From: an uncultured Acidimicrobiaceae bacterium
Lineage (GTDB): Bacteria > Actinomycetota > Acidimicrobiia > Acidimicrobiales > CAIXPF01
Length of the DNA stretch: 64,000 nucleotides
Reading direction: 5' to 3'
Assembly (NCBI GenBank): GCA_963775055.1
Contig: CAVZHK010000001.1
Location: forward strand, 333,402-397,401
This document shows positions 2,226-57,090 of this stretch, in pieces (position 1 is the stretch's first letter; each line of letters opens with the position of its first letter). The notes beneath the pieces were generated by a model that saw only the letters and a list, made by a program, of their open reading frames with translations, did not search any database and was not told the origin of the DNA. Both the position numbers and the translations under genes were made by a program.

Positions 2226-3641
2226 CTACCCGACCGCGCCCGCGACTGGTGGTTGCCCGGCGCGAACCCCCGTCCAGCACCGCCCGATCGCCGCTACCGA
2301 GACCTCGACGTCGGCCTCGGTGGTGGCCTGATCGGAGACCGAGAAGCGCATGGCCCGTCGGCCCTGCCAGCTGGTGGCCCCCGCCCAGCAGGTGCCGTCC
2401 TGTTGTACCGCGTCGATCACGGCGTCCGTTGTCGCGTCATCATCGAACTGGATCAGTACCTGGTTGAGCGCCACCGGCACCAGCAACCGTGCCCCGAGCT
2501 CCTCGAAGCGTCGGGCCGCCAGCTCCGCCAGGACGCAGCATCGCTCGATCAGATCCGCCACCCCGCCTCGGCCGCGGGAAGCGACCATGGCCCACACCTC
2601 CACACCCCGGGCCCGCTGGGACATCTGCAAACCGAGATGCATCGGCACCCTCGTAGCGGCACCGGTGCTGGTGGTCGTGCCGGTGGCGACGTAGGCCGCG
2701 TCGGTGGCCAGCGCCCGGGTCAGATCCTCGATCCGGGCACAGATGGCGATACCGCAGTCATAGGGCAGGTTCAGCCACTTGTGGCCATCGGTGGCCCAGG
2801 AATCGGCCCTCTCCACCCCCGTCACCAACGGTGCCCGGCCCGGGGCGGCCGCGGCCCACAAGCCGAACGCACCATCAACGTGCACCCACGCCCCAACCGC
2901 TGCGGCCCGGTCCACGATGGGCTGGAACGGGTCGCTGTGGCCGGTGTTCACATTGCCGGCCTGCAACACCACCAACGTGCGATCATCAATCGGCCCTACC
3001 GCATCGACCCGCACCCGACCATACCCATCAGTAGGTACGAGGGTCACATCGGCCCGCCCGAACCCCGCCGCCCGCAACGCCTTGAGCACCGAGATGTGCG
3101 CCTCTTCGCCGGTGAGCACCCGCAGCGCCGGTGAACCACGCAGACCCCGCTCATCGACGCTCCAACCCAACCGGCCCAACAAGGCGTCGCGCCCGGCCAT
3201 GATGCCGGTGAGGTTGGCGATGGTGGCCCCGCCGCAGAACGAGGCGGTGGCTCCGACCGGAAGCCCCAACAGCGAGCAGACCCACCCGGCCGCCACGTCG
3301 TCCAACCGGGCAGCGATCGGTGACATCACCGGCGAAGCTGTGTTCTGGTCCCAGGCACCCACCATGATCGCCGCGGCCTGTGCCGCCAGGTCGGTGCCGC
3401 CGTTGACAAAGCCGAAGTAGCGGCCACCGTTGGAGGCCATGGTGGCTGGCGAACCGAGTCGGTCGAGCTGCGCCAGGACCTCCGCTGCGGACCTGGGCCC
3501 CTCTGGCAGTTCGGCATCGAAGTGTCCGAGATCCGCGAGCGCCGAACCTGCGGGAGCCACCGCCCGGGTCCTGAGGTCCTGCTGATAGCGGCCCGCCCGG
3601 CGCGCCGCCTCGACCAGGACCTCGGTGCGGGAATCAGTCAT
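2226..3641 (-). CDS. PLP-dependent decarboxylase (group II / fold-type I)
   Basis: Carries the [11 protein letters not shown] lysine motif and overall group II decarboxylase layout. The start is placed at ATG 3641 (MTDSRTE). The upstream part of the track ORF runs through the 9-bp repeat array. Confidence 0.8.
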
Positions 3642-3710
3642 GGCCCCAGTTTCGTCCTTGCCCCCGCCGCGAGGGCAACCGAATTTCCCTACCTGGGTCA
3701 GCCAGCGCGC

Positions 3711-3764
3711 CGAAATCACCGAAATCACCACAATCACCGAAATCGCCGAAATCGCCGAAATCAC
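3711..3764. repeat. 9-bp tandem array x6 (CGAAATCAC consensus)
   Basis: Read directly: CGAAATCAC CGAAATCAC CACAATCAC CGAAATCGC CGAAATCGC CGAAATCAC. It lies in the 168-bp divergent intergenic region. Confidence 0.95.
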
Positions 3765-3809
3765 TATTTGCGCCCTCAAGCCCTCAGCGGGACGCATCGA
3801 TGACTCAGG

Positions 3810-6176
3810 GTGTCACGCAGGGTGGATCGGACGCTGATCCTGAGCTGCGCCACCGGCTTCATGCTGGTGGTGCTGGCGGTCGGCACGGCCTTCACCAGCG
3901 GGCGCAACGACGCCATTGACCGCATTGACGAGGAGCTCAGCCGGGAGGCGACCAACCGCCGAGATGACCTCGACGTGTACTTTGACCGGGCCCGCACCAT
4001 CACGTTGATCGCTGCCAGGAACGCCGCCTTCACCCAGTTTCTCGCTGAGGACGACGAAGCAGCCCAAGCAGCCGGTGCCCCTGTCATCGACGCCCTCGGC
4101 TACCTCGAAAAGCTGTATCCGGGCAGGATCGGTGCAGCGTGTTTCATCAATCTGAACGGTGTGGAGCACGCCCGGGTGGTGCTCAACCGCGCCGCCAGCG
4201 CCGACCGGCTGTCCACGAACGAGGCTTCCAACGCGTTCTTCGCCCCCACCGTGGCGCTCGATCCCGGTGACGTGTACCACGCTGCGCCGTACTTCTCGCC
4301 CGACGCCTTGGAATGGGTGGTGTCCAACTCGACCCTGGTGACTGATGCCGAGGGGATCACACGGGCGATGCTGCACTTTGAGATCACCCTCAGCAGCTTC
4401 ATGGATGAGCTGGGTTCCACGGCGCACACGGTGGCCATCGTCGATCAGGTGAGCGGCCGGGTCATCGCCCACCCCGAGGGCAGCGGCTCTTCCGGCGCGG
4501 CCGTCGCGGATCAGGACGATCCACGCTTTCTGGTCTTGACCAAACACGATGGCCTCGGCAATGCCACTATCGACGGTCGACGGTTCGCGGCGGCCCCGGT
4601 GTCGGCTTCCCCCCAGAACGCCAACCGCTGGATGGTGGTGGTCGGCACGGTGGACCCCGTGAGCCCTTTCGCCGGCTTCGACGCCGCCCACCTCGGCCTG
4701 GCGCTGGTCGGGATGTTGTTCGTGGTCGCCGGATTCCTCACCCACTCCGGTCAGCAAGCCCGTCTGCGTCAGGCTCTCAGCGACGCCTTGACCGGTCTGC
4801 CCAACCGTCGACGTCTGCTGCTGGACGGCAATCAGCGGCTGATGGCAGCAGAAGTGGCGGCCAGAACGACCAACAGCGGACGCTCCGTCGTCGAGCGGGA
4901 CGAGACCATGGCGTGGGCGGCGATGCTCATGATCGACCTTGATCGCTTCAAGGAGATCAACGACACGTTGGGCCACGCCGAGGGTGACGAGGTGCTGCGA
5001 CACGTGGCCCGACGGCTGGCTGAGGTTGTGGGTCCCGAGCATTTGCTGTCACGGCTCGGGGGCGACGAGTTCGCGGTGCTGGTCCGCGGCCCGATCAGCG
5101 CCACCGCCACGGTCAGCCTTGCCCGGTCCCTCCACGACGTCATCAATCAGCCCATCCTGCTCAATGGACTCCCGGTGCAGGTGGGCGCCAGCATCGGCGT
5201 GGCCTTCGCCCCCCAACACGGCCGGGACATGGGCGCCCTGCTGCAGCACGCCGACGTGGCCATGTACGCCTCCAAACACGGCTCCAAGGGGGTGACGGTC
5301 TATGACCCCGAACGCGACCCCTACAGCCCCGCCAGGCTGGGCCTGGCCTCGGAGCTGCGCAAGGCGATCAGCGAGCGTCACCCCATCGAGCTGCACTACC
5401 AGCCGAAGGTGCAACTCGTGACCGGACGCACAACCGGACTGGAGGTGCTGGCCCGCTGGTGGGGTCCAGACGGGCAGATGGTCAGCCCCGACGAGTTCAT
5501 CCCCCTGGCCGAACGATCGGGTCAGATGATGGCGCTCACCAGCCTGGTCCTGGACCGGGCCCTGGCCCAGCTGGCGTTGTGGCGGGCGGAGGGCTTCGCC
5601 ATGTCGGTGGCGGTGAACGTGTCGCCCAGCTCCCTGCTCGAGGGTGGCTTCGTGGCCGAGGTCGCGGACACCCTGCACCGCCACGGAGTTCCCGGACGGT
5701 CCTTGATGATCGAGCTCACCGAGAGTGCGGTGATGAAAGATCCCGAGCGGTCCCTGCGGGTGCTGGCCGAGCTGCGACGCATTGGCGTGACGTTGAGCAT
5801 TGACGATTTCGGCACCGGGTATTCCTCATTGAGCTACCTGCGCCGGTTCCCGGTGAGCGAGCTGAAGATCGACCGCAGCTTCGTGACCACCTTGTCCTCA
5901 ACGGCCGAGGACGCCGCCATCGTGCGGGCCGCGGTGCAATTGGGCCAGAGCCTGGGGCTGCAGGTCGTGGCGGAGGGCGTGGAGGACGAGACAGCGTTGG
6001 AACGGCTGCTGGAGCTGGGCTGTGATCAGGCCCAGGGCTACGTGCTCTCACCGCCGATGCCGGCCGCGGACGCCACCGAATGGCTCCGCACCCGGCCCGT
6101 GGCGCGGATGGCGTCCGCCGTGGTCTCCCCCCAGGACCCCTCGGGCCTTGGCCAGCTTGACGGCACGACCCGCTGA
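3810..6176 (+). CDS. membrane sensor diguanylate cyclase/phosphodiesterase (GGDEF-EAL)
   Basis: GTG start, N-terminal TM helix, an extracytoplasmic sensor-like region and a second TM helix. The GGDEF domain shows GLPNRRRL and RLGGDEFAV. The EAL domain shows ELHYQPKV, ELTES, DDFGTGYSS, KIDRSF and AEGVE. Confidence 0.93.
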   Translation: MSRRVDRTLILSCATGFMLVVLAVGTAFTSGRNDAIDRIDEELSREATNRRDDLDVYFDRARTITLIAARNAAFTQFLAEDDEAAQAAGAPVIDALGYLEKLYPGRIGAACFINLNGVEHARVVLNRAASADRLSTNEASNAFFAPTVALDPGDVYHAAPYFSPDALEWVVSNSTLVTDAEGITRAMLHFEITLSSFMDELGSTAHTVAIVDQVSGRVIAHPEGSGSSGAAVADQDDPRFLVLTKHDGLGNATIDGRRFAAAPVSASPQNANRWMVVVGTVDPVSPFAGFDAAHLGLALVGMLFVVAGFLTHSGQQARLRQALSDALTGLPNRRRLLLDGNQRLMAAEVAARTTNSGRSVVERDETMAWAAMLMIDLDRFKEINDTLGHAEGDEVLRHVARRLAEVVGPEHLLSRLGGDEFAVLVRGPISATATVSLARSLHDVINQPILLNGLPVQVGASIGVAFAPQHGRDMGALLQHADVAMYASKHGSKGVTVYDPERDPYSPARLGLASELRKAISERHPIELHYQPKVQLVTGRTTGLEVLARWWGPDGQMVSPDEFIPLAERSGQMMALTSLVLDRALAQLALWRAEGFAMSVAVNVSPSSLLEGGFVAEVADTLHRHGVPGRSLMIELTESAVMKDPERSLRVLAELRRIGVTLSIDDFGTGYSSLSYLRRFPVSELKIDRSFVTTLSSTAEDAAIVRAAVQLGQSLGLQVVAEGVEDETALERLLELGCDQAQGYVLSPPMPAADATEWLRTRPVARMASAVVSPQDPSGLGQLDGTTR

Positions 6177-6222: not shown

Positions 6223-7899
6223 TCAGCGACCGCCGCGTACCAGCCGACCGGGCATGGCGCCGGTGTGCTCACCATCCTCGTACGTGACCTCGCCCTTGCA
6301 CACTGTCATGCGGTAGCCGTGGGCCCGCTGGATGAGCCGCTTGCCGCCGGCGGGCAGGTCGTACACCATCTCCGGATCTTCGAGGCCGAGGTTCTGGTAA
6401 TCGATGAGGTTCAGGTCAGCCCGGTAGCCGGGGGCGATGACACCACGGTCGGTCATGCCGTAGAGCAGGGCGGTGTCCTGGGTCATCTTGTGCACCACGA
6501 ACTCGACCGGCAGGGTCTCGCCCTTGGTGCGGTCCCGGGTCATGTACGCCAGCATGTAGGTGGGCACGCTGGCGTCACAGAGCACGCCGCAATGGGCACC
6601 GCCGTCCGAAAGACCGAACACGGAGTGCTGGTGGCGGATGGCGTCGATCTGCTCGCCGAGATCACCGCGGTACCGGCCGAAGAGGAACAGGATGGGCCGC
6701 TGGTCGGCCATGACGTCCATCAGGGCCTCACGAACGTGGATGCCGCGGGCCTCGGCCACGCCGGCGATGGAATCCTCATACCCCGGCTCGTAGCTGAGGT
6801 CGGTGGGCAGCACGTACATGCGGTCCCAGGTGGAGATCATCTTGTTGGTGTCCGCGAAGCGTGAGGTCTTGGCCTCATCCGCCAGGACCTTGGCCCGGAA
6901 GTCCGGGTCGCGCAGCTTGGCCCGCTGCTCATCGAAGGGCAGGTCCTTGATCTCGCTATAGGCCGGGAACTGCCGCATGGGGTTGAGCGTCCCCTCCAGC
7001 GTCATCAGCACCGAGGCCGGACGGGCGCCGACCTGGGGCCGGATGTGGAAGCCCTCCGGGTTCAACCGGTCCGCCAGGTCCCAGATGCCCAGGTTGGTGC
7101 CGGTGGCGGGCACCAGGAACGTCATGGGACGGCCGGTGAGGCGGGCGATGTGCTCGATCCAACCCAGTTCCTCGGCCTTGTCGAGGTGGTCGGAGATGAC
7201 CTCCATCGTGCCGTGGTCGAAACCGACGAAGGCTTCGGCGATGGCCACCATCTCGTCGGAGGAGGCGTTGGTGCCGGGAACCACGTTGCCGGCCTTGTCG
7301 ATGTGGCCATAGAAGCGCGACGTGGAGAAACCCAGCGCCCCGTCTTCGAGGGCCTTGCGGGTGATGGCAGACATCTCGGCCATGTCCTGGGCGGTGGCGT
7401 CCTCATAGCAGCGATCACCCATGACGTAATGGCGCAGGGCCACGTGGGGAACCTGGGCGCCGATGTCCACGGTGTAGGGCGTGTCGATCACGTCGAGGTA
7501 TTCGCCGAAGCTCTCCCAACCCCACGGCAGCCCTTCGTGCAGCGCGGTGCCGGGGATGTCCTCCACCGACTCCATGATCTGCACCAGCTCGTCCTCGGTG
7601 CCCGGGCGGACAGGGGCGAAACCGACCCCGCAATTGCCCATGACCACGGTGGTGACCCCGTGCCAGCAGGAGGGGGTGACCTGCTTGTCCCAGCAGACCT
7701 GCCCGTCGAAGTGGGTGTGGATGTCCACGAAACCCGGGGTGAGCAGGTTGCCCTTGGCGTCGATGCGTCGGTGTGCCCGACGACGGGTCAGATCACCGAC
7801 CTCGGCGATGAGACCGTCCTTGACGCCCACATCGGCCTTGAAGCCGGGCCGGCCGGTGCCATCGACAACGAAGGCGTTCTTGAAGATCAGATCGAACAC
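6223..7899 (-). CDS. N-acyl-D-amino-acid deacylase (D-aminoacylase) family amidohydrolase
   Basis: VFDLIFKNAFVVDGTG...GFVDIHTHFDGQ is the amidohydrolase metal site, and the remainder is family-typical. The start is placed at GTG 7899, preceded by GGGGGAA. The upstream 57 codons of the track ORF are not family-like. Confidence 0.85.
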   Translation of the reverse strand: MFDLIFKNAFVVDGTGRPGFKADVGVKDGLIAEVGDLTRRRAHRRIDAKGNLLTPGFVDIHTHFDGQVCWDKQVTPSCWHGVTTVVMGNCGVGFAPVRPGTEDELVQIMESVEDIPGTALHEGLPWGWESFGEYLDVIDTPYTVDIGAQVPHVALRHYVMGDRCYEDATAQDMAEMSAITRKALEDGALGFSTSRFYGHIDKAGNVVPGTNASSDEMVAIAEAFVGFDHGTMEVISDHLDKAEELGWIEHIARLTGRPMTFLVPATGTNLGIWDLADRLNPEGFHIRPQVGARPASVLMTLEGTLNPMRQFPAYSEIKDLPFDEQRAKLRDPDFRAKVLADEAKTSRFADTNKMISTWDRMYVLPTDLSYEPGYEDSIAGVAEARGIHVREALMDVMADQRPILFLFGRYRGDLGEQIDAIRHQHSVFGLSDGGAHCGVLCDASVPTYMLAYMTRDRTKGETLPVEFVVHKMTQDTALLYGMTDRGVIAPGYRADLNLIDYQNLGLEDPEMVYDLPAGGKRLIQRAHGYRMTVCKGEVTYEDGEHTGAMPGRLVRGGR

Positions 7900-13049: not shown

Positions 13050-13544
13050 TCAGCCGGCGGCGGTAGACCACGTGCCGCGGCCCACCGCGACCAGGCGACC
13101 CTGATCATCATGCAGGTCGATGTCGCACACGGCGGCGCTGCGTCCGGCCCGCCGAACTCGGGCCGTGGCCACCAGGTCGGTGTTGAACGCTGGTCGGAGG
13201 TAGTCGATGCGGAGGTTCATGGTCGGCACGCCGTGGCCCACGACCGCGCTGACCGCGAACGTGCCGGCGGTGTCGATGACGGAAGCGATGGGCCCCCCGT
13301 GCACTTGTTCGCCGTTGGCCAGCCGGCTCAGGGAGACGTGAAACGGCAGTCGAAGTACGAACCGGCCGCTCTCGACGTCCACCTCCTCGACGATCATCCT
13401 CACCAGGTGGTGGAACGGCGCCTCATCAACGGTGGCCTGCATGCCGGGCACCGTGGCGACGATGGAGGGCGGCCCGGCAGAGGACTGCGGCTGGACCGGG
13501 GAGGGGCCGGCGACGGGACCGGAGTCGGAGGACATGGCGCACAT
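13050..13544 (-). CDS. PaaI-type hotdog-fold thioesterase
   Basis: The pattern VHGGPIASVIDTAG...RIDYLRPA...GRLVAVGRGTW is typical of PaaI/DUF4442-like thioesterases. The start may instead be ATG 13442 (MQATVDE). Confidence 0.75.
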   Translation of the reverse strand: MCAMSSDSGPVAGPSPVQPQSSAGPPSIVATVPGMQATVDEAPFHHLVRMIVEEVDVESGRFVLRLPFHVSLSRLANGEQVHGGPIASVIDTAGTFAVSAVVGHGVPTMNLRIDYLRPAFNTDLVATARVRRAGRSAAVCDIDLHDDQGRLVAVGRGTWSTAAG

Positions 13545-13756
13545 TGTGTCAGGACAGTGCCGACCCGGGCCGCGGTCTGACTGATCACGCGGCGGTATGG
13601 CGCGAGAAGCCGGTGGTGGTACGCGGCGCGGCGTCGCGCTTCGTAGGCCCGTTGGCGGCAGGTACGCCCGCAGTAGAGGGGGCGGCGGCCAAGGGGTTTG
13701 GGTGCGAATTTGTGACCGCAGCGTTCACAGGCGAAGACTCGTTGCAGGATTTCCAT
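13400..13756 (-). CDS. small zinc-ribbon protein (CxxC...YCGRTCRQRAYEARRR motif)
   Basis: MEILQRVFACERCGHKFAPKPLGRRPLYCGRTCRQRAYEARRRA. Only the first 50 or so residues look protein-like. The tail overlaps the thioesterase gene in another frame, so the 3' end is uncertain. Confidence 0.4.
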   Translation of the reverse strand: MEILQRVFACERCGHKFAPKPLGRRPLYCGRTCRQRAYEARRRAAYHHRLLAPYRRVISQTAARVGTVLTQCAPCPPTPVPSPAPPRSSRSPLPGRPPSSPRCPACRPPLMRRRSTTW

Positions 13757-13873
13757 GCGGCCAGTATCCACGTGGGGTGTGACAGTGAAGGGCGCCCGGG
13801 AGCGATGGGCTGAAAAGTGGGCATGGACGGTCGCCGCCCGGTGTTCCCGGACTTCTCCTGGCAGCCCTACCGC

Positions 13874-13936
13874 TTCCTCCGGTGACGAAATACCGTCCGG
13901 TACGTCCGACACGGTTCCTCCGGTGACGAAATACCG
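13874..13936. repeat. two perfect direct copies of a 22-nt motif TTCCTCCGGTGACGAAATACCG
   Basis: Copies lie at 13874-13895 and 13915-13936. Each is followed by a small hairpin (TACCG-TC-CGGTA and ATACC-GCGT-GGTAT). Confidence 0.95.
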
Positions 13937-14245
13937 CGTGGTATCCGCTGACTCAGGCGGAAGATCGCTGAATTCGACAGATTCTCGAACCGCTGGAGTG
14001 AATCGACCATCCGACCGTCCGTCGTTGGAGCACACGAGATCTCACCGATTCGGTGTCTCTGCTCTGGACCGGCGGTCAGCGGCATACCTGGTCGAAAGTG
14101 GGCACCATGGGGCCGTCGCCGGGCGACGTCGGGCGGACCCAACGGGATTTGTACGTCGCCCCGACCCGTAGCGTAACCGAGTCTCGCCCCGGCCAAGCGC
14201 AGCCGCCAGAAGGACCGTCCGGGGCATGAACAGAGCGGGGGGCCA

Positions 14246-14313
14246 ATTTCGTCACCGGAGGAACACGTAGGTGCGGCAGAACGAGTCCTCGCCGCGATTC
14301 GTCACCGGAGGAA
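14246..14313. repeat. two inverted copies of the same motif (ATTTCGTCACCGGAGGAA, TTCGTCACCGGAGGAA)
   Basis: Copies lie at 14246-14263 and 14298-14313. They are the reverse complement of the 13874/13915 copies and enclose about 310 bp with no convincing ORF. Confidence 0.95.
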
Positions 14314-14427
14314 CAGTGGCGGGTTCCGGGACGACTCAGCACGTGCCGTTGAGCTCGCCGAGGACACCGCGCTCGATGATGGACACTCGATCGTCACTAA
14401 CCTCGCGCTGAGCAAGGGAGGCTCCTC

Positions 14428-23206: not shown

Positions 23207-23230
23207 GCGCCGAGGAGCCTTAGCCCGGCG

Positions 23231-24047
23231 CTACCCGCTGTAGCTGTAGCCCAGGCCGGCCCGGGCGTCGTTCTGGATGCCGTAGGGCGGGATGGGTAGC
23301 GCAGGCCGTTGCGGGCACAGCGCTTCCAGCCCGGCGATCATCTTCGGCAGGAACTCCGGCGGCGTGGCCAGCAGCAGCTCGTCGTCCGGCACCCCACCGT
23401 AGCGACGCTCGGCGAAGCAGGGGATGGACACGCGACGGCTCGCGCAGCTTGAGCGCCCTTCCCCAGGAGTCGGCGCAGGCGGACTCGCCCACGCAGCCCC
23501 ACTCGAAGTTCTTGTAGCCGCTCCACTGCAGCCCGTTGATCATCAGGATCATCTGGGCCGGGGTGGCGTAGATCAGGCAGATGTCGGGCGGGTCGAGGCG
23601 GCCGGCCGTCAGCGGGGAAACCGCCAGCGCCTCGTATTGGCCGAATGGCACAGTGTGCATGGCGTGCTGGTGGGCCGCGGCGTCCTCGATGGGTCTTCGA
23701 ACCAGACGCCCGGCCATGCGGCTGCCGGAGAGCCACTCCTCGTCCCGCGGTGACAGACCGACCACCGCGCCGCACTGGGCGCCCACGAAGTCATCGTTGG
23801 TGACGCCCACCGTCCAGCCGATGCGCGACGCCATCCCGACGATCTGGTCCATGGTGTGGATCGACTTGGGCCGACGGATCTTGGGGATGGCCTCCATCTC
23901 GGCTTTGGTGGCGAACAACTTCATGCCGATGGGTGTGGTCCGCAACCGCAGCAGCCGGTTCAGGTCCGCCACCAGCCCGTTCCAGTCATAGTTCCCGGGA
24001 CCGGTGGCTCCGGAGATGGAGACGGTGCGGGCCGCGCTCGGCATCAC
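23231..24047 (-). pseudogene. DUF169 family protein, reading frame broken near 23431-23470
   Basis: The N-terminal 205 codons are in one frame (...YATPAQMILMINGLQWSGYKNFEWGCVGESACADSWG). The conserved-looking C-terminus (SIPCFAERRYGGVPDDELLLATPPEFLPKMIAGLEAL) is in the +1 frame. Confidence 0.6.
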
Positions 24048-24327
24048 TGGTGGTCATGGTCGGACCCTACCCGCCCGCTGTGGTCCGCGGGCGCTGGATC
24101 GCTTGGTGGCCGCCGGCGACGCACCGCGCGAAAGACTTGTGTCCACAGGTATCAGGGGAGCGCTTCGTGACTCCTACACGTCGCACCAGGTCAGATCGGT
24201 TCCGTGACCGGAGGGGGTTCCGGGGCTGCTTGACCGGGCCGCGGCAAGGTGTACGCACCCGTTCCGGTCCCAGTCCTCCCACAAGCCGTGATGGGGGCCG
24301 GTAGGGGCTCCAGCGGGACATATGCCT

Positions 24328-24379
24328 TTCTCCGGTGACGAAATGCAGTCGGGCGGGCGCCCCTTTCGTCACCGGAGAA
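24328..24379. repeat. perfect 16-bp inverted repeat of the TTCTCCGGTGACGAAA motif (20-nt spacer)
   Basis: TTCTCCGGTGACGAAA lies at 24328-24343 and TTTCGTCACCGGAGAA at 24364-24379. This is the same motif family as at 13874-14313. Confidence 0.95.
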
Positions 24380-24481
24380 GCGCCGACGCGCTCCCGCTCG
24401 AACCTCGCCGGTCTTGACAGACCGCCAAAACACCACCAGCGCCCTCACCGGAGCGAGGACGCTGGTCGGGCTCGGGATCGG

Positions 24482-54618: not shown

Positions 54619-54692
54619 TCGGGGAGGGGAGATTTGAACTCCCGACCGCGTGCTCCCAAAGCACGTGCGCTACCTGGCTGCGCCACTCCCCG
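54619..54692 (-). tRNA. tRNA-Pro (anticodon UGG)
   Basis: A manual cloverleaf folds cleanly: acceptor CGGGGAG/CTCCCCG, D arm GCGC-AGCCAGGTA-GCGC, anticodon arm CGTGC-TTTGGGA-GCACG, T arm GGGAG-TTCAAAT-CTCCC, discriminator A. Confidence 0.93.
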
Positions 54693-57019: not shown

Positions 57020-57090
57020 GCGGGTGTAGCTCAATGGCAGAGTCCCAGCCTTCCAAGCTGGTCATGCGGGTTCGATTCCCGTCACCCGCT
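57020..57090 (+). tRNA. tRNA-Gly (anticodon UCC)
   Basis: A manual cloverleaf folds cleanly: acceptor GCGGGTG/CACCCGC, anticodon arm CCAGC-CTTCCAA-GCTGG, T arm GCGGG-TTCGATT-CCCGT, discriminator T. Confidence 0.93.

Follow-up and report, generated by a model that had tools for sequence, protein, structure and literature searches.

An intergenic array of four copies of a ~20-nt motif, found in the genome of an uncultured Acidimicrobiaceae bacterium, belongs to a motif family that is dispersed through Acidimicrobiales genomes and linked to the genes of a zinc-ribbon protein family. On the evidence below, we incline, by a narrow preference over doubt, to regard the array as candidate cognate DNA-binding sites of this lineage-specific gene module. 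This is the most economical reading in view of the linkage to the gene family, the co-variation of motif and protein clade, a unit that is pseudo-palindromic, and the all-or-none conservation of its copies. The Acidimicrobiales zinc-ribbon gene that has this conserved array upstream is undescribed, and neither the motif nor the protein signature turned up in the literature. The following features were located in the window, i.e., the whole stretch of 64,000 nucleotides that was analyzed (67.8% G+C); scores refer to the weight-matrix (PWM) scan described further below.

13400 to 13597, minus strand: read-through tail of the truncated zinc-ribbon ORF, past residue 53, where homology ends
13598 to 13756, minus strand: codons 1–53 of a gene of the zinc-ribbon family (MEILQRVFACERCGHKF...CRQRAYEARRR), recognized by tblastn
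13757 to 13795, minus strand: predicted leaderless-type promoter, TTCACTGTCACACCCC-N7-GATACT-N6-ATG, with the same block before the ATG in 9 loci and recurring in others
13871 to 13893, plus strand: motif copy A, on the side of the zinc-ribbon gene, whose ATG is ~115 nt away (PWM 32.3 bits)
13912 to 13934, plus strand: motif copy B, proximal (PWM 32.6 bits)
13935 to 14243, no strand: spacer between the inverted copies, without conserved sequence, coding signal, or RNA-family match
14244 to 14266, minus strand: motif copy C, distal (PWM 34.4 bits)
14294 to 14316, minus strand: motif copy D, distal (PWM 30.1 bits)
24324 to 24383, no strand: dispersed family member, a close inverted pair (hairpin), from motif matches and folding

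The two copies of a 22-mer and the two inverted copies that the original prediction had described were confirmed in their places. Two copies of the 22-mer TTCCTCCGGTGACGAAATACCG begin 41 bp from each other, at 13874 and 13915, and its reverse complement recurs at 14246–14264 (19 nt, a perfect match to 13914–13932) and at 14298–14313 (16 nt). TTCCTCCGGTGACGAA has four exact copies in the window (plus strand: 13874 and 13915; minus strand: 14248 and 14298), the latter two matching each other across 18 nt. The spacing of copies C and D is 50 bp, and B is separated from C by 309 bp. The motif is, as had been claimed, far above chance: allowing up to 2 mismatches, the 16-mer has 6 matches in the window against a chance expectation of 0.06, a count that was reached in 0 of 100 shuffles. 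The description of the region as free of ORFs holds in substance, with mechanical ORFs crossing the array at a third-position GC of 0.60–0.74 and without a coding frame pattern, compared to 0.73–0.87 for the third positions of the flanking genes.

The zinc-ribbon ORF does adjoin the array as predicted, with its ATG at 13756 on the minus strand instead of at 13757. It begins MEILQRVFACERCGHKF...YCGRTCRQRAYEARRR, and its residues 1–53 were found by tblastn to be 92% identical to the full-length gene of 193 aa in the closest relative found (L149/P0121; contig JBJXFH010000190, VOC protein 88% identical). The gene is truncated in the window, since both homology and coding pattern are lost after codon 53 and the ORF runs into the 4HBT thioesterase gene. 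The tail, which overlaps the thioesterase start, shows GC values by codon position of 0.61/0.82/0.71 that are not coding-like and is probably a non-coding remnant. Upstream of the full gene in L149 lie the matching promoter-proximal sequence and, beyond it, nine motif copies (2 + 7) that are opposed as in the window. Codons 1–53, the promoter, and individual motif copies can be aligned between the two loci: copy A is kept together with its ATACCnnCCGGTA tail, the core of copy B is kept, copy C aligns with an L149 copy, and the flank GGAAC(C)AGTGGC of copy D is common to an L149 copy. The spacer enclosed by the array, in contrast, is not conserved and cannot be aligned. In more distant relatives (L151–153; VOC protein 77% identical), the 4HBT and VOC genes lie 156 bp apart without zinc-ribbon gene and without motif.

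A search of genomes beyond the window bore out the suspicion of a dispersed family, with matches in Acidimicrobiales genomes. An exact scan for TYCTCCGGTGACGAAAT with one genome per species gave at least 119 loci; among the matches listed, 28 loci came from Acidimicrobiales/Acidimicrobiia MAGs, with several contigs per MAG and frequently 2–5 copies inside a few hundred bases. The other listed loci were single matches in unrelated taxa at the level that chance would give, and viral contigs likewise yielded 28 single matches at chance level. From 28 Acidimicrobiales loci of several MAGs and the window we assembled 57 copies (79 with later loci). All 57 are intergenic, and their consensus is c(c/a)T....(g/c)(t/a)TT-CTCCGGTGACGAA-ATG with no conservation beyond it. 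In the PWM scan, copies are all-or-none, scoring at least 20 bits with essentially none at 10–20 bits, and shuffled sequence gave zero matches. Clusters with both orientations always show plus copies followed by minus copies so that the units face each other, and the reverse order was never seen. Opposed copies enclose 29–360 bp, and alignments show this interior DNA to be unrelated from locus to locus, while direct neighbors are ~33–58 bp apart with unrelated spacers or are part of larger tandem duplications. All-against-all blastn confined the similarity to ~35–50 nt around the motif, save for orthologous loci and a shared terminator module. Many copies lie at contig ends, and the repeat accounts for the assembly breaks seen there in these genomes.

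Short tandem repeats are frequent in the spacers of motif clusters, such as CCCCTTGCCGGTACGA in three copies, GGTCGA in five, and GCCGGCCCA in a variable number (L129 at ~2870–2930, L115 at ~5990–6020, and L090 at ~3640–3700), which suggests that these regions are unstable. Two loci from two MAGs (L030 at 4554 and L132 at 2227) carry an inverted-repeat element, CTGTCAGACCCCCTGrGGAyA...CCCCTGACAG.

The motif of ~20 nt is an imperfect palindrome, GTTTC-TCCGGTGAC-GAAAT, and the unit is best described as the 19–20 bp imperfect palindrome GTTTC-TCC-GGT-GAC-GAAAC/T, which has a direction because its center is asymmetric. Single units fold no better than shuffles (z of 0.2–1.3, one at −1.6), and pair counts over 79 units, made in two registers, showed no covariation in the first, while the weak signal of the second did not exceed that of slid controls. 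The unit is thus a linear pseudo-palindromic sequence rather than a folded RNA. These results bear on the earlier proposal that the enclosed 310 nt form a structured non-coding RNA closed by nested long-range helices, which is largely refuted and to which we would give next to no credence. The region does fold with z = −4.4 on the plus and −3.9 on the minus strand, and A pairs with D and B with C as had been foreseen, a nesting that is trivial because the copies are inverted repeats. The interior, however, is unconserved even in the closest relative, varies from 29 to 360 nt in length across loci, and has no Rfam match in the region at gathering or permissive thresholds; convincing covariation was likewise not found in the units.

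Several other identities of the motif were tried and rejected. A coding repeat does not fit copies that stand in different reading frames because their 41-bp spacing is not a multiple of 3. A start codon with ribosome-binding site (the ...GAAATG end, or GGAG-N7-9-ATG) was dismissed since AGG is as frequent as ATG at this position and the downstream sequences are unrelated. A sigma-70 or ECF promoter would not show conservation as one continuous 20-nt block, its hexamer spacings do not fit, and a scan found none. A hairpin within the single unit was considered in two registers and not supported, and a presumed likeness to the 3′ end of 16S rRNA or to SRP RNA extended over a few bases of one copy and was dropped.

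The zinc-ribbon family is small and uncharacterized, with proteins of ~190 aa. Searching 5.8 billion proteins with the 193-aa protein retrieved only 25 relatives, and those with a named source are all from Acidimicrobiales, the order in which the motif, too, is enriched. One MAG has three of these paralogues and another has two. With a profile, 98 matches at E ≤ 1e-10 were obtained among 1.84 billion cluster representatives. Invariant in the alignment (A4) are C10, C13, C29, and C33, then RQRAYE, an H84-A-L-R-P-D-G block, C102, and C129xxC. An AlphaFold model (mean pLDDT 78) shows a zinc ribbon joined to a long basic helix, together with a small beta domain and helices at the C-terminus. Foldseek returned best E values of 0.6 in the PDB and 0.04 in BFVD, with local, weak structural resemblance to FCS, YacG, CGNR, and HNH-associated zinc fingers, among which the FCS, YacG, and CGNR types are nucleic-acid-binding. 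Searches of Pfam, NCBIfam, and PADLOC found no match for the family protein, and the match in PHROGs is to a family of unknown function.

Several hundred additional clusters at 50% identity contain the N-terminal ribbon, CxxC-x15-YCxxxCRQRAYE, either by itself (proteins of 60–130 aa) or fused to other regions. It is not covered by any Pfam model, and a domain scan of the longer proteins was uninformative.

Genes of the zinc-ribbon family are closely tied to the motif. An array lies upstream in 20 of the 21 members with readable upstream DNA, namely the window locus (W), L149, L068, L050, L090, L154, L155, L157, L158, L159, L160, L161, L162, L164, L165, and L166; L129, where array, promoter, and first codons of a family gene stand at a contig end; and L170, L175, and L176, which show the same architecture with a variant motif and encode proteins of 30–34% identity. 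The layout is +(n) ... −(m) and is found only on the 5′ side of the gene, and each of the 2–3 family paralogues per genome has its own array. The gene maps of two further family loci show a gap of 585–900 bp before the gene. In the lone exception (L167, positions 1–1034), family gene and promoter abut a truncated sucD-like ORF without an array, so that this locus is either genuinely different or the product of a chimeric assembly.

Motif and protein clade vary together. Members whose basic helix reads ...RQRAYEARRR carry TTCTCCGGTGACGAAA, and those of the distant clade (30–34% identity), with ...RQRAYEHRHGF, carry GAATCGTC[C/G]GTGACG[A/T]xx, in which GAATCGTCSGTGACG replaces TTCTCCGGTGACG; the L175 site forms an 8-3-8 perfect palindrome. 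CATT-type dispersed copies occur in the genomes JBDSMH01, DATLFA01, and JBDTLT01, of which at least the last encodes a family protein (L129). The core C[C/G]GTGACG, on the other hand, is identical across paralogues of only 45–68% identity, and it is because of this that another conserved factor could be the one that binds, with the zinc-ribbon gene as its target.

Directly before the family genes lies a conserved block, TTCGCTGTCACACCCC-N7-9-TAnnnT-N6-ATG, which resembles a leaderless-mRNA promoter and, judged by its sequence, looks like one in function. This predicted promoter occupies the last ~40 nt before the ATG, and the sites lie ~100–650 bp upstream of it; the nearest copy is ~95–220 nt upstream of the family ATG (~105–235 nt when measured to the motif core), and no site overlapped or abutted the promoter at the family loci read. 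We propose a module composed of [→ sites ... ← sites], leaderless promoter, and zinc-ribbon gene, in which the ~190-aa protein would bind the palindrome as a dimer. In the putative binder, an N-terminal 4-Cys zinc ribbon would be followed by the basic helix (CRQRAYEARRR), by another beta domain that binds zinc, and by the C-terminal helices. Recognition of the motif by this protein is the most likely reading of the linkage, and the bound protein would probably regulate its own gene, in that arrays of 2–9 sites, spaced ~37–58 bp apart in two opposed groups, could be bridged or looped to feed back on the promoter. In the window, the gene is cut after codon 53 and the array is intact, which would fit sites that are used by paralogues elsewhere or a recent truncation. 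Dispersed sites such as 24324–24383 are mostly found past gene ends, where close inverted pairs might also act as hairpin terminators or insulators.

The proposed binding sites differ in part from a classical operator. Paired operators for a regulator of the divergent zinc-ribbon and VOC genes had been among the readings first offered; the link to the zinc-ribbon gene stands, with arrays at nearly all family members and a motif that changes with clade, while control of the VOC gene is not supported, as VOC orthologues in relatives have no adjoining sites. The strict → ... ← order, the distance from the promoter, and the bias of dispersed sites to gene ends do not fit a classical operator, and since the dispersed sites are mostly at gene 3′ ends, they are not where a classical transcription factor acts. 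Readings that resemble the REP/RAYT or TRIT systems discussed below are therefore still to be weighed.

Iterated operator- or centromere-like arrays bound by a protein encoded just downstream are known from parC/ParR of plasmid R1 and from the heptad arrays of the omega repressor. Like these, the arrays described here place several short direct and inverted sites upstream of the gene of the presumed binder, and the site changes with the protein. In contrast to them, the modules are chromosomal with 2–3 paralogues per genome, the sites lie far upstream of the promoter with many extra ones at unrelated intergenic places, and the protein has a zinc ribbon where ParR and omega have a ribbon-helix-helix fold.

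With crude gene calls from third-position G+C, most dispersed clusters were assigned to gene 3′ ends or to regions between convergent genes. By these calls, the outermost copy of a cluster lies 37–150 nt (up to ~230) past a co-oriented gene stop in ~23 cases and beside a gene start in ~9, zinc-ribbon family excluded. Motif copies are kept while the neighboring intergenic DNA diverges, as seen for W and L149, for W and L183, and for L057 and L082, loci of two species with a flanking protein at 96% identity, whose orthologous intergenic DNA has diverged except for the motif and ~20 flanking bases. Together with the all-or-none scores, we count this retention as selection on the sites. The window's own dispersed member corresponds to the perfect hairpin that had been noted at 24328–24379 and extends to 24327–24380, where two near-copies of the motif form a 16-bp perfect stem with a 20-nt loop (z ~ −4.7). 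It lies 105 nt past the stop of a VWA_CoxE gene and 283 nt upstream of the DUF169 start, and it has no U-tract, though the stem folds strongly (−49 to −52 kcal/mol, like the close pair of L076). The pair is kept, loop included, in the closest relative of this locus (L183), where the flanks differ, and no motif is present there in L184–186 (77% identity).

These positions invite a reading at the level of RNA, in which inverted pairs would be hairpins that end or stabilize transcripts in both directions and the array would insulate the zinc-ribbon gene from upstream transcription. Besides the forward motifs 37–150 nt past co-oriented stops and the strong folding of close pairs, this is favored by four loci (L058, L115, L087, and L069) where a canonical A-stem-loop-U terminator hairpin, GAAAAGCACG-cctgc-CGTGCTTTTCGG, follows ~60 nt past the motif, and by an actinobacterial precedent, the TRIT motif of Mycobacterium, a sequence-conserved palindromic terminator for which the authors suspected an unknown binding factor (PMC3152330). 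TRIT shares with our motif the restriction to a lineage, strong conservation near gene ends, and bidirectionality when palindromic, but each TRIT is a single compact hairpin that overlaps a stop codon (around −8; PMC3152330), whereas our motif is an unfolded 20-mer 37–150 nt past stops that pairs at variable distance and is linked to a specific gene family. We nonetheless think RNA-level elements rather improbable, as single copies do not fold and pairs up to 360 nt apart would make poor terminators. At W, no U-tract terminator is present, and a scan finds no terminator-like site at 13874–14313. Moreover, this reading leaves both the co-variation of motif and protein clade and the arrays between divergent gene starts (W, L060, and L154) unexplained.

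The terminator at these four loci is a second repeated module, the canonical bidirectional terminator GAAAAGCACGcctgcCGTGCTTTTCGG, which recurs ~60 nt past the motif at unrelated loci of two MAGs (L058 at ~540–570, L115 at ~6040–6070, L087 at ~4590–4620, and L069 at ~7720–7750).

A mobile origin had also been considered, in the form of a non-autonomous element with doubled terminal inverted repeats. Dispersal of the family agrees with it; the unrelated interiors of 29–360 bp and the retention at orthologous positions do not, and target-site duplications were not seen, with no direct repeat beside the outer ends of L035 and L129, the two loci that were inspected by eye. For the same reasons, a MITE is not supported: like MITEs, the array has inverted terminal copies around a short non-coding intergenic segment, but neither the sequence nor the length of the interior is shared, and there are multiple internal direct copies.

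There is an analogy to REP/REPIN–RAYT systems, and a selfish system of this kind, with motif pairs as mobile, non-autonomous units that the zinc-ribbon protein mobilizes or maintains, seems to us unlikely, though it still competes with the cognate-site reading. Both systems feature short dispersed extragenic repeats that are vertically retained, stand mostly as head-to-head pairs, often at gene 3′ ends, and have a dedicated gene beside copies of its own repeat (PMC3116915, PMC3733652). In addition, our copies are multi-copy with many at contig ends, are always head-to-head as in REP dimers (PMC3733652), vary in number between orthologous loci (+ + − versus + − −; 4 in W versus 9 in L149), and are missing from relatives L151–153 and L184–186. 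A REP unit, however, is a short palindromic stem-loop with stems of ~8–9 bp and loops of 4–5 (PMC3733652), which our unit is not. REP stem-loops end in a tag, GTAG or CGTC; CGTC is present inside our motif (TTCGTCACC), though not beside a stem. Pairs vary in spacing and share no interior sequence, the flanks of the two loci inspected by eye showed no target duplications, and copies are kept at orthologous sites without decaying members. RAYTs are IS200/IS605-type tyrosine (HUH) transposases flanked by repeats, whereas here the repeats are one-sided, confined to the 5′ side of a gene for a zinc-ribbon protein in which alignment A4 and structure searches revealed neither an HUH/Y1 motif nor a known transposase or nuclease fold, nor an invariant set of residues that looks catalytic.

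Inverted repeats of ~20 bp around 100–350 bp directly upstream of a gene, always adjoining a small gene without assigned function, would also suit an invertible DNA switch, with the copies as recombination sites and a flip of the segment switching the zinc-ribbon gene or its neighbors. We consider this very improbable: some pairs enclose just 29–40 bp, several direct copies per side would be an unusual layout, the predicted promoter lies outside of the segment, the protein has no similarity to serine or tyrosine recombinases, and an independent Logan contig (L001) is oriented like the window.

In a wider perspective that we put forward tentatively and with more doubt than conviction, the zinc-ribbon family and its 20-nt site may constitute an unrecognized, vertically inherited genome-wide system of Acidimicrobiales, either one that maintains or mobilizes repeats (like RAYT/REPIN, with an unrelated fold) or one whose sequence-specific protein makes gene ends polar, protein-dependent transcription boundaries. 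Should the dispersed sites turn out to be terminators that depend on a protein, or a REPIN-like replicator served by a novel enzyme, a short list would gain a new type. Although abundant in soil, freshwater, and marine samples, Acidimicrobiia are mostly uncultured, and very little is known about their gene regulation. A strictly conserved DNA word tied to one uncharacterized protein family, with a co-variation that predicts which protein recognizes which site, offers a candidate protein–DNA pair and a marker for intergenic boundaries in their genomes.

Some minor observations concern the surroundings of the hairpin pair and the remainder of the window. In L184–L186, a His_Phos_1 gene (3331–3990) lies between VWA_CoxE and DUF169, and its position is taken in the window (24048–24481) and in L183 by a non-coding stretch of 390–430 bp with the hairpin pair. 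Upstream of DUF169, a block, CCCCGGAACCCCCTCCGGTCACGGAACCGATCTGACCTGGTG, that contains a degenerate look-alike of the motif is kept between the window (24190–24230) and this closest relative (~3840–3880 in L183). Rfam matches in the whole window are limited to two tRNA genes, at 54619–54692 on the minus and 57020–57090 on the plus strand. The DUF169 gene itself (23220–24047, minus strand) appears frameshifted, in that homologues span no more than 79% of the long ORF, while the C-terminus to be expected is a separate ORF at 23231–23431, which reflects either a sequencing error or a pseudogene.
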